From positions 3,906,001-3,970,000 of the forward strand of contig NC_059430.1 of NCBI RefSeq assembly GCF_021028975.2: a stretch of DNA of 64,000 nt, in the 5' to 3' direction. Below are positions 6,684-64,000 of this stretch, piece by piece. Source of the DNA: Sphaerodactylus townsendi (Eukaryota). Under the pieces are notes generated by a model that saw only the letters and a list, made by a program, of their open reading frames with translations, was not told where the DNA came from and searched no databases. Made by a program: the position numbers and the translations under genes. The number at the start of each line of letters is the position of its first letter. Position 1 is the first letter of the stretch.

Positions 6684-7543
6684 CACTCCGCACATTTTCT
6701 TGAAAGTAGCTATTCTACAGAGGACCAACATGGTGACCCTCTGAAAAAGGGTCTCAACGTCTTCCTGCAAGATATTTCTTAATTGGAGAAGCCACGCAGA
6801 ATGGATCTGGGAACACTTGCTAGCTCAGCTCATTTCCCATTGGCCAGTGGTGATCAGCTGGCCAATTAAGTGACAGGCTGACAATATGCTACCTTTTGAT
6901 GTTGACTCACATGAAAGAGCTTTGATCTATTTAAAATATTGATATACTGTGCTTGTGATGTCTTTTCCTGGAAGCTTTGCCGCCTCCCAGATGTTTTGAG
7001 ATGGCGAAGGGGGCGAGATTAGAAGCCCAGATGGTTTCCCTTCTTCCCACTGCAAGCTGTGAAGTTGGGCTGCAGAAACATGGAGAGAAAGGACTCTTTT
7101 TCTTGGCCCATTTGTTGCGGGAAGCACAGGTGCATCCCTTCTCTCTCCGCTAATCTTGGGGGAGAGGTGGGCATCTCTTTCTCCTATCTCTGTTTCAGCT
7201 TCACAGTATAGGTGTCTTCCTGCAGATCACAGCAGGACTCCCAACCACGGAGTTGACTTCTAAACAAAAGGTCGCTCGAAATTGTTCCGCAGGTGTTGAG
7301 CTACATGATGCAGTCTGAACCTATCCCCCATCAGCTCATGGTCCGATTGTGAGCGTTCAGCAAGGTATGCTAGACTCCCAAACAGGTTCTCTGAGGAATT
7401 CCTGGCATCCTTACTACAGCTTGAACCTGAGGGTTTGGGCATGCTGGACATAAGCCCTGACAGAGAGACATAGCCCTGCCTCAATGTGGGATTCATCTCT
7501 TCTGCATTCAGGGTAGCAACATGAGGGTTTGGTGCAGTGCAGA

Positions 7544-8078
7544 TGTAACCCCCATGCTCAGAATGGGTTGACCCAGAAAGGGGTGGAGACTCAAAGCAGC
7601 AGAAGGCTGCAGAGCTCATGTAGTTTGGAGGAGACAAGGCTACCAGACTCGGACCTTGGTTTGTATAAGCCCTGAACACCTTGTTAAGGTAACTGCAATG
7701 TTGTTGGGAACTACTGGGAAGGTGGTAGTTTATTTTTGCTATGTTGTAAATGTTGGAGTTTATTGTTTCAGGGTTTCTTTTTAATGTTTGTAATGGGCGA
7801 GAGTTCTCCTGGAAACCTTCATCGTGTTGAATCCTGTCCACCAAGCCCTTGGAGTCTTCAGGAGCCAACCCCCTTGCAAAGAAGAACTGGACTTGGCAAT
7901 ATCAGAAGACTGTAACTAGAAGGACTTGAAAATGCAACCTGAACAGGACCTTGAAGTGTGATGTTAAATGTTGATGTTATATGTTATATGTTAAGAAAGT
8001 AAACCATTTTGTTTTTTTAAATTTGTTGTTGCAAACTCATTCCAAGTTCTGCCCCACAGAACCCACAGGCAGAAGTAC
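7544..8078. mobile_element. Solo LTR, same family as 52782-53324 (opposite orientation)
   Basis: Starts TGTAACCCCCATGCTCAG; aligns over its length with the reverse complement of 52782-53324; right end degenerate. Confidence 0.75.
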
Positions 8079-8494
8079 TCCAAAGAGCTCAGTCCTCAGC
8101 TGGGCTCAGCTCTCCCTGGAGCATGCACACACTGAGCTAGAAGCCCTTCATCCCATTAATGTAGACATTGAGAATGAGGGAAATATTTTGCACATGCTCT
8201 GGAGTCCTTCTTGGGGGCAAGCCTGAATAAATTCCATCAAATTATTAAGCATATAGAGGAACAAGCCCTGCTGGGAAAGAACCAAGACTAAGACCGAAAA
8301 TTAACACAGCAAGAGGCGTCATAAGGGGACTGGCAGAATCGGAAAAGGTTACACAGCAAAAGAACATTTGTTTGGACAAATTTATAAACTATTATTTGAA
8401 GGTGATACAGAACAAGTAACAGTCAAAACTTCCAAAGGCTGTTACTACATGAAAATCTTATAAATGAACTCAGAAGCAAATAAAAGCAATACAA

Positions 8495-8750
8495 ATTTAT
8501 TTATTTATTTATTGGTTGGTTGGATGTATAGGCCGCCTCATCCTCGAAGGGCTCGAGGCGGCTCACAACATACTATACACCCACAATCCATAAATACATA
8601 ATAACAGTCTCATTAAAACAAATCATTAAAATATCAATTAATGTAAGAGCAGCAGCAATTTACTTTAAAACTAAATAACAAAATTAAGACAAGCAAATTA
8701 ACAACAACAACAAACAATAAATGAAATATAAATGATGGTGTGAAATATGT
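8495..8750 (-). mobile_element. L2-type LINE 3' end fragment
   Basis: (TTTA)n tail with the GCCGCCTC...GAGGCGGC stem-loop, as in the 18747 and 53595 copies. Confidence 0.6.
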
Positions 8751-8902
8751 GTTAAAATGAGATTTCTTACCCACCAAATGCTAACCTCTAAGCATGTAAT
8801 TTTCATTCTATTGGAGTTAATTTGTCTTGGATTTTCTTAGAAGCCATGTCAAACAGCACCACATTACAGGAAATTGAGGGATTTGCGTCTGATAACCAAT
8901 AC

Positions 8903-57721: not shown

Positions 57722-58495
57722 TGTTAGCCCAAGGCCAGATTAGAATTTTCTTAATAATAATAGAACTGCCTCACTATCTAGAATCGCCGTTTCAGCCACC
57801 TAGGCCAAGGGGCAAGGGACTCTTCTTTCCCCAAGCCAGAGGAAAGAAAGAGAGGCAAGAGTTCCCAATCAAAGCAAGAATCCTTGCATAGAATAAAAAC
57901 AAAGTTTATTTCTAAGCCAGCACAGGTCTCACCAGAGTTGAGAGCTGCCCCGAATAGCCGAAAGGTTCAGGGTTTTAAAGGGTCTTCTTAGGGTACATCA
58001 AAGCAGAGTCATATACATTGCAAAAGATTTAGGGTTGCAACAAATTATCCCACGTCAAACATTTGGTATAAGTTCCCAAGCATCTATGATGTTTCTAAAC
58101 AAAGTGAATGTAGGGCTAGTTATCTATTGCATCCTGACTGCTCCAACTATCACCTTGTTTATGGTACTTCTTGTAACAACAGTAAGGTCATCTAGTTCCT
58201 GAGAGGCCAGGGAGGCAAAGACGGGGTGTTTAGACATTCGGGTTGTTTATGGCTATCTCTGCATATTGGAAAGTGTTATCTTCCCGATATCTGGCTGTAA
58301 ATTAGCCTGGTAGACTGAGGGGCTCCTCTGTCTATGGTGATGTGGTAGGTCAGGCAATTTGCTAAGGAATGTGTTTTGTTAACCTAAGAGCAGAGAGAGA
58401 GAGATCTATCTAAGTAATACTACTATATTCATATCCCTATATTGTATTGATATATTTCTTAAAGCATAATTTCCTGCTCTTCAGCGTTGCTCACA
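57722..58495 (-). repeat. ERV 3' LTR (774 bp)
   Basis: Follows PPT AAAAAGGGGGGA (about 58499-58510); termini TGTGAGC...GCTAACA; AATAAA at 57905-57910; TATA-like TTTAAAA near 57975. Confidence 0.85.
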
Positions 58496-60216
58496 AAATC
58501 CCCCCTTTTTAATTGTGCGCCTGAAGGAACCTGAGGGGGCACACTAGCCGAACTTGGTCCAGTATTGCAGCGCTGACGAGGGTAGGGGTATTGGGGCACA
58601 CGACCGGGAGCATATGAAGGTGGAGGAGCGATTGGTATAGGAGCCGAGGCTGGAGGCCTGGTGGACATTACTGCAATCAGGGGACGACCATTTGGACTAG
58701 CCGGAGTCGGCCTCAGTGCAGCCTGCATGGACGTGCAGCAGGAGGCTGCAAGGGGAGCACAGTGGATGCAACAACAAACAAACAAACCTAATACAATAAT
58801 GATTATTATTGTTACAAACAGTCCCCTCAGCCAGGCAAAGTTTGGCAGCCAATCCAGGGCATGAGTCCAGAAATCTGTCTGAGCCACCTCACTCAAGGGA
58901 TGCACAATGTCTTGTAAATCATTAATATTAGTGGTGACATTCCCCTCCATATTTATGGACAGGCAACATTGTTCTCCCAACAGGGCACATGTTCCTCCCT
59001 GTTGAGCACTAAGAACATCTAAAGCCCGGTGATTCTGCAGAACCATATCAGCGATAGAATGGAGTTCCGTTTGTAGTCCGGAAAGGGCCTGGGCTGTTGC
59101 CTGGAATCCAGTATCAATGATGGCAGACATATTCTTCACTGCCCTTTCCAACTGGATCACCCCAAACCGCGGGAATAAAGTACGATAAAAGGTGCCCCAC
59201 CAAGGATGGGTTTCGCCTACTAGTGGGTTGTATACTACTTCTCTGGGGTATCGCCCACCTAGGTTTAACACCCTCCTAGGGGAAATAGTTTTCCGTTTTT
59301 CTAAGTCTAGGACAGCAGTGCCAAAAGAACAGAGACCAGACCAATCATGGTGAATCACTTTTCGCCCCACAGTGCCACAGATAAAAAACAAACCTTTCTC
59401 GCTTAATAATAAAGCCCTCCTTTCTCTAGGAAACTTTGAAACTAGCTGTTGGCAAACTGGGTCTATCTGCTTATTGGCAGTGGGGGCTACACATGTCTGA
59501 AGGATGGCCATCCAGGGCAGGATGGAGGTGGCTGTACCTTCCCAGACAGTAACATTATTTTCTTGATAGGTACGATATTCTTGGCCGTAGGCTTCAGGGG
59601 AATTTACAGAGATGTGGATCGTATAGTGAGAGTCTGATACTGTGAGATACCCCGTTTGTGGTTTCCCTGGGGGTGCTATGACAGAGATTTCCCCTTTTTC
59701 TGGGATCCACTCGAAATTAGTAAATGACAGAATGGTATCACATAGTTGGTGTGGCGGAGAGCCATAGTCAAACCTTCCTCCCTGTCTCTGCAAACAAATA
59801 GGAAAACGACGGACCTTGTCAGTCCGGATGGAGGTAGTATAGACCTCTCTGCCTTCAGACCCCAGGCGGTGAATGGTGTCAAGTTTCCACTCCTCGGGAA
59901 CGTTGACCCATTCCACCTGTTTGGGGACCTCCAGGGGCCATTCATGATGATCGTATACATTGGCTGGCCCTTCTGAAAAATCAAACCACCATAATAGGGC
60001 CTTGGCTATGTGAGTATAGTGTGCCCAGGTACCTGAGTAGGCCATCTGGGTTTTATAGCACAACCAGCAGTCTGAGAGATTGCCAAAATCAGCCAGGCTC
60101 TGCAGAGGTTCCCGTAAGGGGTGTTCCAGAGGGCTTGCTCCATTTACAAAGAGCCCAAGAAGCAAACTTAAAGACAATAGGGGTCTTGGGGATACTCTAA
60201 GGTGTCCAGGCTGCAT
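58459..60216 (-). CDS. env: ERV envelope glycoprotein, gamma-type, intact (585 aa from first ATG)
   Basis: Signal peptide LLSLSLLLGLFVNGA, SU CWLC (CxxC), RYPR minimal furin site, ISD LQNHRALDVLSAQQGGTC, CX6CC, TM anchor; the ORF-track start at 60312 is TTG. Confidence 0.93.
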   Translation of the reverse strand: MQPGHLRVSPRPLLSLSLLLGLFVNGASPLEHPLREPLQSLADFGNLSDCWLCYKTQMAYSGTWAHYTHIAKALLWWFDFSEGPANVYDHHEWPLEVPKQVEWVNVPEEWKLDTIHRLGSEGREVYTTSIRTDKVRRFPICLQRQGGRFDYGSPPHQLCDTILSFTNFEWIPEKGEISVIAPPGKPQTGYLTVSDSHYTIHISVNSPEAYGQEYRTYQENNVTVWEGTATSILPWMAILQTCVAPTANKQIDPVCQQLVSKFPRERRALLLSEKGLFFICGTVGRKVIHHDWSGLCSFGTAVLDLEKRKTISPRRVLNLGGRYPREVVYNPLVGETHPWWGTFYRTLFPRFGVIQLERAVKNMSAIIDTGFQATAQALSGLQTELHSIADMVLQNHRALDVLSAQQGGTCALLGEQCCLSINMEGNVTTNINDLQDIVHPLSEVAQTDFWTHALDWLPNFAWLRGLFVTIIIIIVLGLFVCCCIHCAPLAASCCTSMQAALRPTPASPNGRPLIAVMSTRPPASAPIPIAPPPSYAPGRVPQYPYPRQRCNTGPSSASVPPQVPSGAQLKRGDFVSNAEEQEIML

Positions 60217-60587
60217 TGGCACGGTGAGATAGGTTCTTTTAGGGACAGAAAGAGGTGTGGGGCAGTTATTGGGGTACACACAAACCCACAGGAGTATAAC
60301 TCGGGGAACCAAGGGTTATACTTATACGTGGCTGCATCCTCGATCTCAAGCTGGTCTCCGTAAAGGTCTATTTCCCCGTATAGGGTAGATACAATCTTAG
60401 GACCCCACTGAGGAAGGCTACTGGGGAGACGCTCAAAGATTGTTAAGTATTCTACAGTAATGTTTTCTACAGCAATACCATATACTTGTAGAGAATAGTG
60501 GGGACAGGGGCGACAGGCAGGAGCTAAGTAGGGTGCAATCCAATAACTGGGAAACGGGAGTTCAGATGGGGTAGGGAGCATATACAT
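60168..60587 (-). CDS. Hypothetical ERV accessory ORF (139 aa) between pol and env
   Basis: ATG-initiated, same strand as the viral genes, preceded by a pyrimidine tract and TTTCTTAG; no recognised homology. Confidence 0.4.
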   Translation of the reverse strand: MYMLPTPSELPFPSYWIAPYLAPACRPCPHYSLQVYGIAVENITVEYLTIFERLPSSLPQWGPKIVSTLYGEIDLYGDQLEIEDAATYKYNPWFPELYSCGFVCTPITAPHLFLSLKEPISPCQCSLDTLEYPQDPYCL

Positions 60588-60845
60588 ATGGGCAGCTAAG
60601 AAACTAGATCAAAGCACAAAGCTAAAATCACAGATAAAAAAAACTTTAAGTATTATCACAGTTCTGCCTCAGCCTCGTTGACGGTCCTTTCCAGCGATGT
60701 TTTCAACCGGGAGAGTTCTGCGGGCTGTTGAGTCGAACACAAAATATAGTTCAGCGTCACAGGACACCGGGTCCCTCGGAAAGGGAAAAACCCGGACTTA
60801 TGCCTCTACTGAAGACTGTATCTGGAAAATATTCCAACAGGTAGT

Positions 60846-63800
60846 TTAGATGTGTTCGTTTTCCAGCAAGGTTACAGCTGCGTCAGCTTCGTCCTCTTTA
60901 GTTTCAGGCGCCGGAGGGGGTGTTTCACAGTGGGCCGGCTTTCTGCGGAAGAGCATGCGCAAATCAGATCCCAATTCAGCCAACCAGATGTCCTCGTCAC
61001 GAGCCGCTGTTTCTCTAGCCTCCACAAGGGGTGGTGCGTCAGAGTGCTTCAGGCGGGTGTGATGGACCCAGGTCTTTACCCCTCCGACTTTCACTGAAGC
61101 TTGAGTGGCAAGGAGGACTTGAAAGGGACCCTTCCACACCGGAATGAGAGGCTCTTTCTTATAGCCTTTGATGTAGACCCAGTCTCCCAGCACGAAAGGA
61201 TGTAGCGGGGCAGTCAGTCCTTCTGGTCGGATTTCGTTCAAGTCACAGTGCAGCTGTGAGACTGAGGCAGCTAGGCAAGAAATATATTCGACAGTTAAAG
61301 CATCACCCACTCTGGCTTCGTCAGCCAGGATGGGTCGGGACAGAGGGTAAGGTCTCCCATACATTATTTCAAAAGGGCTGAGTTTCCATTTTCCCCGGGG
61401 GCTGGTTCTTACTCGCAAGAGGGCCAGGGGAAGGGCATTGGGCCACTTTAAGGAGGTCTCCTGCATGATCTTGGTCAGAGCCACCTTCAGGGACCTGTTC
61501 ATTCTCTCGACCACCCCAGAGGATTGGGGCCGCCAGGAGCTCTGAAGCTTCCAGGGGATCCTGAGGATTCTGCTAACCTCCTGTACTACCTGAGCCATGA
61601 ATGAGCTCCCATTGTCAGAATTTATCCCCTCCCACGGGAACCCATAGGCCGGGGACAATGTCCTTTAGGAGTACCTTGACCACCTCTTTGGCTTGGCACG
61701 TCCTGCCGGGGTAGGCTAGGGGCCAGCCTGACATGGTATCCATGAACACAAGGAGGTACCTGTATCCTGCAGCCCGAGGCAGTTCAGTGAAGTCACACTG
61801 CCAGCTGGAGCCAGGGTGTTGTCCCCTAAATACTTTCTTCCTCTCGCAAAACCGCAGGGACGGGTTGGAGGGAAACATTTGTCTTGCGTTGGCCCAGATA
61901 ACACACAGTTTTTTTGTAATCGCTTCTGCCTGTGCTCTGACTTCTTCTTTGCTCCAATAAAAATATAGATCAAACCAATTTATCAGACCCTGACACCCTA
62001 TGTGGGTGCCTGTGTGGAGGTTTTTCAAGATCTGAAATACCAGCCCTTCAGGCACAAAGATTTTTCCTTGTTCTGTTTCCCACCATCCATCCTCCCTGGA
62101 GTGTAGTCCACTCCCTTCAGCAAATTTGTTTTCCTTTTGTGTGTATATTGGGTCTAAGTCCTGTACTGCTGGGATGAGGGCTCCTGTTATGGCAGCTTGT
62201 TCTTGTTCCCATTCCTCTTGTGCCCATGCTGCCCTTTCTAAATCCTCCTCGTCCTTTTCCTCCATTTCCTCCCAAAAAGTTAATCTAGGCCTTTGCAATC
62301 TTTCAATGAGGGCTTGTGCAACAGCTTCCTTAGTAGTGTAGTAAACCTGCTTTCCCCCTGCTGCCGCTTTTGCAGCGGTATCTGCCCTTCTGTTTCCCCG
62401 GGCCACAATGGAGTCCCCTGCTGAATGTCCCTTGCAGTGTACAATAGCAAGTTCGCTAGGTCTATGTATGGCCTCCAGAAGGCCCAGCACAAGCGAGGCA
62501 TGTTTGATTTTTGATCCTTTAGAGGTTAGTAAACCCCTTTGTTTCCAAAGTTCCCCAAAAGCATGTGCAACCCAAAAGGCATATCTGGAATCTGTGTATA
62601 TATTTGCCCGCTGACCTGTTGCCAGGACCAGCGCTCGTATTACAGCCATGAGTTCCGCAGCCTGTGCAGAATATGTTGGGGGCAGTGTTCTGGCTTCTAT
62701 GACTGTGTTCTGGGTGACAACTGCAAAGCCAGAAAACCGCTTCCCCTCCACCATATAGCTGCTCCCATCTGTCCAAAATTCTACCTCTGGGTTTTCTAAT
62801 GGCTGATCCTGCAAATCTGCACGGGCCGCGTATGTCATGTCTATGGTTTCAATGCAATCATGCAGAAGAGGACTCTCATCAGGCAGAAGAGTAGCTGGGT
62901 TTAGCTTGGTGGAGACTACACACTTCACCCCCGGGCTGTCAATTAGGATGGCCTGATATTTTGCCATGCGTTGCTGAGTTAACCAGTGGCCCCCTTTCTG
63001 TTCCAACACGGCTAAAACAGCATGAGGAACATAGACAGTCAGATCCCCCCCCCCAGCGTGAATTTTAAAGCATCCTCTACTAATAGGCAAGCAGCAGCTA
63101 CAGCACGTAGGCACGCGGGCCATCCCTTAGCTACCAGGTCAAGTTGTTTTGATAAGTATGCGACAGGTCTCTGAGTGTCAGCAAACTCCTGGGTCAAAAC
63201 TCCCTTCGCTATTCCCTTCTGTTCATGCAGGAACAGAAAGAATTATTTCGTAGAGTCAGGGAGACCCAATGCCGGGGCACTGATAAGAGCCTGTTTTACT
63301 GCCCGGAATGCGTTAGTTTCAAGGGTTTCCCATTCTATTTTTGCGAGTTCAGGCCCCGGTAGCATCTCGTACAGGGGTTTAGTTAAGGTAGCATAGTCTG
63401 GGATCCAGTTTCTGGTGTAACCTGCAATTCCCAAGAACTTCCTTAAATCTTTCCTGGTTTCAGGTTGCTTTATCTTTGTTATCGCATCTTTCCTAGATGC
63501 TGTCAAAGCTCTTTCCCCCCTCTTTAATTGATAACCAAGATAGAGCACCGTTTCCTGAGTGATTTGGGCTTTTGCCTGCGAGACCCGGAACCCCTCCTGT
63601 GCCAAAAAATTAAGGAGAGAAATAGTGGCATGCGTGCATGTAAGGGCATCAGCTGCAGAAAGGAGGAGATCATCAACATATTGGAGAAGGTTAAGCCCCT
63701 CCGGGGGATCCCAATCCCGAAGCCTGCGTTCAAGAGCAGAGCCAAAGAGAGTTGGGCTATTCTTGAACCCCTGGGGCAGGTTGGTCCAGCGGATTTGGGT

Positions 63801-64000
63801 CTTACGGCCATCCGGGTAAGACCACTCGAAAGCAAAAATGTCCCTACAAGCAGGATCCAGAGGCACAGAAAAAATGCATCCTTCAAATCAAGGCAGGTAA
63901 AATAGGAATGATCAGCGGGAATTAAGGTGAGCAAGGTGTAGGGGTTGGGAACGACGTCATGGAGATCTACCATAATTTGATTGATGCTGCGGAGATCATG
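60846..64000 (-). pseudogene. pol: ERV pol (RT, RNase H, integrase), disrupted
   Basis: LDLKDAFF, LPQGFKNSP, YVDD, TDGSS, SAQAAEL, YTDSRY, DFTELP, SDNG, PQSSGVVERMN, WKGPF; frameshifts near 63870, 63050, 61652 and TAA at 63243-63245. Confidence 0.93.

Follow-up and report, generated by a model that had tools for sequence, protein, structure and literature searches.

A putative new accessory-gene family between pol and env in class I (gamma-like) endogenous retroviruses of Sphaerodactylus townsendi

The window, meaning the whole 64,000-nt stretch of DNA analyzed here, carries a 5'-truncated provirus on its minus strand, with an additional open reading frame, ORF X, lying between pol and env. 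The features of the locus are:

Upstream beyond the window, minus strand: pol, running on into protease.
60846..64000, minus strand: pol, with reverse transcriptase (RT) and RNase H plus an integrase carrying WKGPFQV; the stop codon TAA ends at 60846.
61261..61300, minus strand: shared splice-acceptor candidate within the part of pol that codes for integrase, with an AG at 61263-61262 and a branch-point-like TTAAC.
60588..60845, minus strand: spacer between pol and X, 258 nt, non-coding, ending in a U-rich tract.
60596..60640, minus strand: U-rich tract and TTTCTTAG, the acceptor originally predicted.
60587-60168, minus strand: ORF X, accessory-gene candidate, 139 aa, 15.9 kDa.
60216-58459, minus strand: env, gamma-type, one open frame of 585 codons.
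58495-57722, minus strand: 3' LTR (TG...CA), with a polypurine tract just before it and loose ends at 58495 and 57721.

A simple-repeat element lies upstream of protease, the 10 kb beyond showed neither gag nor a second LTR, and pol in this copy is broken by a stop and frameshifts. Pieces of an olfactory-receptor-like ORF, recognized by eye, lie about 7 kb upstream of the provirus (L025:8198-9230, minus strand). An acidic insert of about 56 aa sits between RNase H and integrase (window ~62340-62175, minus strand), and is found in the pol of lineage A, to which the window copy belongs, and absent from that of lineage B. The env tail (~58760-58459, minus strand) is long and Pro-rich with a PPSY motif, and lineage B env tails carry PPPY or PPAY, all of which we take to resemble the PPxY late-domain motif.

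The layout agrees closely with the original prediction. The gap between the pol stop (60846) and the env ATG (60216), put at about 630 bp, measures 629 nt. The 139-codon ATG-initiated ORF described as rich in Tyr, Pro and Cys contains 13, 19 and 7 of these residues respectively, including the CRPC, CGFVC and CQC motifs, and overlaps the start of env in another frame by 49 nt. The U-rich tract ending in TTTCTTAG does end at 60596, 8 nt before the X ATG. Within X, 60291-60433 is matched without a difference by a short-read contig of 143 nt whose depth is that of a single copy, although the run may come from the assembled animal and so checks the letters rather than giving independent support.

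Several features place this element among the gamma-like retroviruses. The best RT matches were to MLV-type chains (E 7e-54), followed by foamy-type (8e-26) and lentiviral chains (~1e-6), some of the virus names being read from the entry codes of the structures. Gag and pro share one frame across a stop codon in full-length relatives (TAG in L081 and L085, TGA in L078), four of four copies have one nucleocapsid (NC) zinc knuckle of the form CX2CX4HX4C (the window copy has no gag), and the integrase GPY/F motif reads WKGPFQV. Therefore, following the criteria for class I elements in the consulted portion of PMC1224870, the provirus is a class I gamma-like ERV, which is not a genus-level assignment. 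Env has the gamma-type hallmarks listed in the consulted portion of PMC9967133, namely a CXXC in SU (N-terminal CWLC) and an ISD and CX6CC in TM (the ISD-like LQNHRALD and CALLGEQCC); it matches TLV_coat at E 3.6e-18, and its best solved relative is syncytin-2 (E 9e-19). The same portion of that source states that retroviruses whose Env is of the gamma type carry few if any accessory genes, deltaretroviruses apart. The MLV-type RT, gag/pro readthrough arrangement, single NC knuckle, GPY/F motif and gamma-type Env are shared with simple gammaretroviruses and class I ERVs. Unlike simple gammaretroviruses, which have only gag, pro, pol and env, the X clade has an extra ORF under selection parting pol from env, and such an additional conserved protein-coding gene is what defines a complex retrovirus.

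A DNA search returned 24 places, the window included, that make up lineage A. X is whole and without an indel in three of the 23 others (L002, L003 and L021). L004 has two indels in X, and a short-read contig over the region differs from it by three gap letters, suggesting assembly error. In eight copies (L005, L006, L009-L013 and L015) small indels abound; most are insertions, their density is much the same across integrase, X and env, and such copies look like unpolished long-read sequence. Ten (L007, L008, L014, L016-L020, L022 and L023) have in common one deletion that runs from codon 69 of X as far as the env tail (window ~60382 to 58584) and also appears in DNA runs, and L024 is a 138-nt fragment. 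The original prediction had set the gene against scattered stops or frameshifts in related proviruses; broken copies do exist, but this tally over the 23 copies shows X to be no more broken than pol or env within them.

The pattern of substitution points to purifying selection on the X frame. Synonymous differences in X number 18.5 between the window and L002, against 4.5 non-synonymous ones (w 0.06, p 1e-9), with env at w 0.12 and integrase at w 0.17 in the same copies. Against L021, to which X is 75% identical in nucleotides, w is 0.13, and there are no indels in the 420 nt of X as opposed to 11 in the spacer of 258 nt. Stops occur in both remaining sense frames of the region, where w is ~0.7-3.5; the signal of X has its mirror image in the antisense frame with the same third positions, but that frame holds 5-16 stop codons per pair. 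The ORF conservation and dN/dS comparison proposed originally thus came out in favor of selection in the X frame only. Counts over related copies, here and below, stand for about three independent lineages.

Two side observations concern proviral structure. L021 / L080 (G000:C12:28.52-28.53 Mb) has lost env and part of integrase, its LTRs are 96.7% identical over 542 nt, and its primer-binding site we take to resemble tRNA-His. L076 (G000:C1295) and L079 (G000:C1538), on small contigs, consist of head-to-tail tandem proviral units with a period of ~7.7 kb, which may be real arrays or assembly collapse.

A protein search of this genome gave weaker X matches, 20 of which were fetched with their flanks. 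Integrase lies upstream of X in all 20 and env downstream in 19. The X proteins of the resulting lineages B (149 aa) and C (143-152 aa) are 26-40% identical to that of the window, and X-frame selection is evident in the pairs L069/L057 (w 0.19), L069/L066 (0.14) and L059/L073 (0.23), with a non-significant test for the near-identical pair L069/L068. We built trees of X (13 rows), the integrase C-terminus (13) and the env N-terminus (11) from this genome's copies only, leaving L021 and L061, which have no usable env, out of the env tree. All three recover lineage A as a starred clade and set lineage B apart by a starred split; lineage C forms a clade when X or env is used, whereas the integrase tree leaves it unresolved. 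Since the three trees recover the same lineages, with that one exception for C, X is ancestral to the clade. The path from the window to L058 measures 2.47 for X, 0.66 for the integrase C-terminus and 0.59 for the env N-terminus, so that between lineages X diverges about four times as fast as these two conserved reference segments. Conserved positions in X are W16, C28-P29-H30, L48, R53, W61-G62-P63, C104, C123 and C125, among which W16, C28, H30, L48, R53, G62, C104 and C125 are invariant in all 16 near-full-length rows and C123 is present in 14.

A reverse test starting from env relatives (18 of 20 loci) found strong X-profile matches in L099-L103, loci that had been partly chosen by their X matches, and weak ones in L087 (E 0.0014) and L089 (0.02); the remaining loci among the 18 had nothing significant at the place expected for X. 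The match in L087 is an X-like C-terminal remnant before env, and suggests a fourth X lineage. Twelve further loci match X, seven beside pol/env remnants and five as short X fragments or weak matches for which no gene context was found. L106-L108 (G000:C3:11.48-11.79 Mb) are three clustered remnants in which the C-terminal part of X adjoins the env tail.

X proteins of 16-17 kDa (15.9 kDa in the window) are acidic in the window and lineage A (pI 4.3, five Lys+Arg) and basic in lineages B and C. No transmembrane segment was found (maximum Kyte-Doolittle value over 19 residues 0.93-1.42 in seven proteins, 1.13 in the window), nor a signal peptide, nor a basic RNA-binding or nuclear-localization stretch shared across the lineages. 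Two AlphaFold models, with pLDDT of 47 and 53, agree at this low confidence on an N-terminal antiparallel beta-meander, and X is predicted to be small, soluble and beta-rich. Foldseek returned no match for the models at E<=0.001. The best VIA-align score, Z 5.1, was to a generic beta-meander, and a WRKY domain (Z 4.5, rmsd 3.3, 58 aligned residues) was dropped as background. An invariant set of cysteines and a histidine in a protein lacking a signal peptide is most simply taken to mean a zinc site, and we consider slightly better than even the chance that C28, H30, C104 and C125 form one; both structure models being poor, the site is not visible in three dimensions.

The profile and structure searches envisaged originally matched no known protein or fold. 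Pfam gave no match for the window X, and 21 family members produced scattered matches only (E>=0.009). A protein collection, queried among proteins of similar length with X alone or with a 19-row alignment, yielded nothing. An HMM of X run over 1.84 billion representatives returned three matches: two repeat proteins, which we rejected, and a RefSeq gene model, gecko by the source's naming, that stitches together integrase, X and env pieces and, being by eye equal to L002 over X residues 15-107, is not independent. An env query likewise found one protein at E<=1e-10 among 8000 scored, again from a gecko. Comparison of X with PDB sequences, the ESM Atlas and metagenome contigs found nothing. These blank searches do not imply that X is confined to this host, because small ERV ORFs are rarely annotated and the reptile genomes searched amount to this one. 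Full-text literature, a scope outside which most subscription journals and supplementary ERV catalogues fall, held no description of ORF X, and the portions consulted of bioRxiv 10.1101/2021.11.23.469661, PMC3230843 and PMC8922424 contain no relevant one. Unknown accessory genes are described as hard to recognize (PMC1224870, in part). The complex-retrovirus arrangement is known in kind, and the X protein family is absent from every resource searched. Our verdict, reached from sequence comparison, is that these class I (gamma-like) ERVs carry in X a new family of accessory genes. We regard it as nearly certain that X functioned as a protein of the virus, and its conservation, selection and want of a known relative bear out what was originally proposed, namely that a gamma-like ERV has an uncharacterised protein-coding gene lying between its pol and its env.

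The U-rich tract and TTTCTTAG are kept in L002 and L008; L021 keeps the tract but has no AG, and most lineage B copies start X ~11 nt past the pol stop with no U-rich tract at all, so the acceptor predicted near 60595 fails as a family-wide mechanism. Within integrase, the AG at 61263-61262 is present on a degenerate third codon position in 24 of the 28 loci that aligned from 47 given; the codons involved encode Ser, Thr or Ile, and a branch-point-like motif lies upstream. L061 and L067-L069 are without the AG. We take this candidate acceptor to sit where the MLV env acceptor lies. The leader from this AG to X has fewer ATGs than the upstream pol predicts in 13 of 15 loci (P<=0.02; one ATG in 674 nt in the window, 10.5 expected), L062 and L082 showing no depletion. 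The X start context is weak in 19 of 19, with a pyrimidine at -3 and no G at +4, and the env ATG is also weak in lineages A and B. From the X start to the env start, out-of-frame ATGs are modestly depleted, with P<=0.06 in four of nine copies and 0.12 in the window, and depletion is absent from L059, L060, L066 and L069. In read runs X1-X3 the flanks and provirus are covered as by DNA, and the joint at 6963-8766 is the genomic deletion and not a splice.

The integrase AG, ATG-poor leader and weak X start together suggest a bicistronic message resembling that of HIV-1 vpu and env, in which the weak vpu start lets env be translated (PMC5220186, portion consulted). The env message would be spliced to the integrase-internal acceptor (61262), scanning from there through the ATG-poor leader would reach X as the first cistron, and env would be reached by leaky scanning past the weak X start, by analogy with HIV-1. 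We judge these three steps, taken jointly, to be somewhat probable; a spliced mRNA presenting X first, as originally inferred, still fits. A competing reading, which we find rather unlikely, has X and env on separate mRNAs through several acceptors (60595 for X, another inside X for env), the layout of multiply spliced complex retroviruses. It would account for the U-rich tract that precedes X in L058 and throughout lineage A, for a run of pyrimidines that ends in AAAG just ahead of the window's env ATG and for the weak env start context in lineage A, but L021 keeps neither AG and lineage B has no tract before X.

In having a small ORF upstream of env that overlaps it in another frame and has a weak start, X resembles HIV-1 vpu (PMC5220186, in the part consulted). 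The likeness does not extend further, as X is predicted to be soluble and beta-rich, with no membrane anchor and no sequence similarity to Vpu, on a class I gamma-like rather than a lentiviral backbone. Viroporins of the Vpu type have an N-terminal transmembrane anchor, the absence of which argues against a Vpu-like role for X. Lentiviral Vif is a small soluble Cys/His protein encoded right after pol, and X offers a functional analogy to it only: no sequence match was found, nor a fold match with the two low-confidence models, and neither L021 nor lineages B and C conserve the SLQ letters seen in X of the window.

Taken together, our overall reading, to which we give a probability of about 0.55, is that X is an accessory gene, the first cistron of a spliced env mRNA, encoding a zinc-binding, host-directed protein. 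X would have been inherited with pol and env over three lineages under purifying selection, its product acting as a small soluble zinc-binding protein on host defence during infectious spread. Such a factor, needed for infectious spread, fits a gene that diverges fast between lineages yet is tightly conserved inside each, and also its loss in company with env: X and env were lost together in ten of the 23 other lineage A matches, and this deletion sub-family spread without either, although the joint loss may reflect adjacency only. Nothing in the tests here points to a specific host target. A counter-defence adaptor directed at the host, rather than a regulator or Env partner, is a role we favor tentatively, at somewhat under even odds. 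More speculative still is the fuller picture of an undescribed complex gamma-like reptile clade with X as its ancestral accessory gene, zinc-binding and bicistronic, which might have evolved independently of Vif and Vpu against a squamate restriction factor.

As selection on X is as strong as on env and integrase over three lineages, complexity arose in a class I clade too. X also adds a new family of proteins, several of whose alleles are naturally intact and lend themselves to expression on their own, and reptile antiviral factors could come to light through its partners. A systematic scan of the pol-env spacers in class I ERVs of other reptiles suggests itself.

Among other roles for X, a Rev/Rex/Tat-like regulator acting on viral RNA or the LTR, possibly through a conserved spacer element, seems unlikely to us. 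X does lie between pol and env and is Cys/His-rich; two non-coding blocks of the spacer (~60805-60756 and ~60717-60664, minus strand) are almost invariant between the window and L021 even though synonymous sites in X are saturated between the two, and the spacers of lineage C contain a hairpin similar to the CCGGG...CCCGG one seen here. Regulators of this kind carry a conserved basic RNA-binding or nuclear-localization stretch, which X lacks, its charge going from acidic in lineage A to basic in the other two lineages. Moreover, the spacer is missing from eight lineage B copies (L057, L060, L062 and L065-L069), shows no compensatory pair among 39 predicted pairs in four sequences and has no Rfam match; its folding z ranges from +1.0 to -2.6 over eight pieces, and no coding frame is conserved in it among the copies compared.

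We hold at similarly long odds that X is a virion- or Env-associated helper of Env folding, trafficking or incorporation, co-translated from the same mRNA. The overlap of X with the env start, fixed in all lineages, the loss of both genes in the same ten copies and the unusually long, Pro-rich Env tail would suit such a partner, but X has neither signal peptide nor transmembrane segment and L021 keeps X whole despite its env deletion.

A host origin of X by gene capture is very improbable. Crocodilian ERVs do offer a documented case of capture at the pol-env junction, in which CrocERV29 took up a KIT-ligand ORF (PMC4299795, portion consulted), and this reptile ERV with an extra ORF in the same place is the nearest reptile precedent that we found. 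The KIT-ligand gene is a recognizable captured host mRNA in one lineage, unlike X, for which no parent in the host can be detected and whose three lineages are ~30% identical. Three six-frame searches of the host genome found no cellular parent, an old capture possibly lying beyond detection; seven of the 12 further X-matching loci lie beside pol/env remnants and the other five have no gene context, and neither a Pfam family nor a non-ERV protein among the 1.84 billion representatives matched.

That X is a frameshifted 5' part of env, an outcome the original prediction had allowed for, or a chance ORF, has next to no probability: X continues in frame into the env 5' region in L064, L073 and L074 and the env frame is open far upstream into X in lineage B, but env starts at an ATG of its own and carries a signal-like segment, an overlap in a different frame is seen repeatedly, in lineages A, B and C (L058, L059), the upstream env-frame stretch of lineage B is free of selection (w 0.95-3.2, against 0.15-0.28 for the X frame), an ATG ORF of at least 139 codons arose in only 2 of 5000 Markov-resampled 678-nt segments, and the recurrent overlap and frame-specific selection refute both forms.

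The run-through ORFs of L064, L073 and L074 measure 222-233 aa and belong to a single lineage C sub-group whose env is otherwise broken. In L057, L060 and L066-L069, an ATG lying 131 nt within X begins an uninterrupted stretch of the env frame, with no protein-level selection on it, and initiation there could give these copies a long Env leader.
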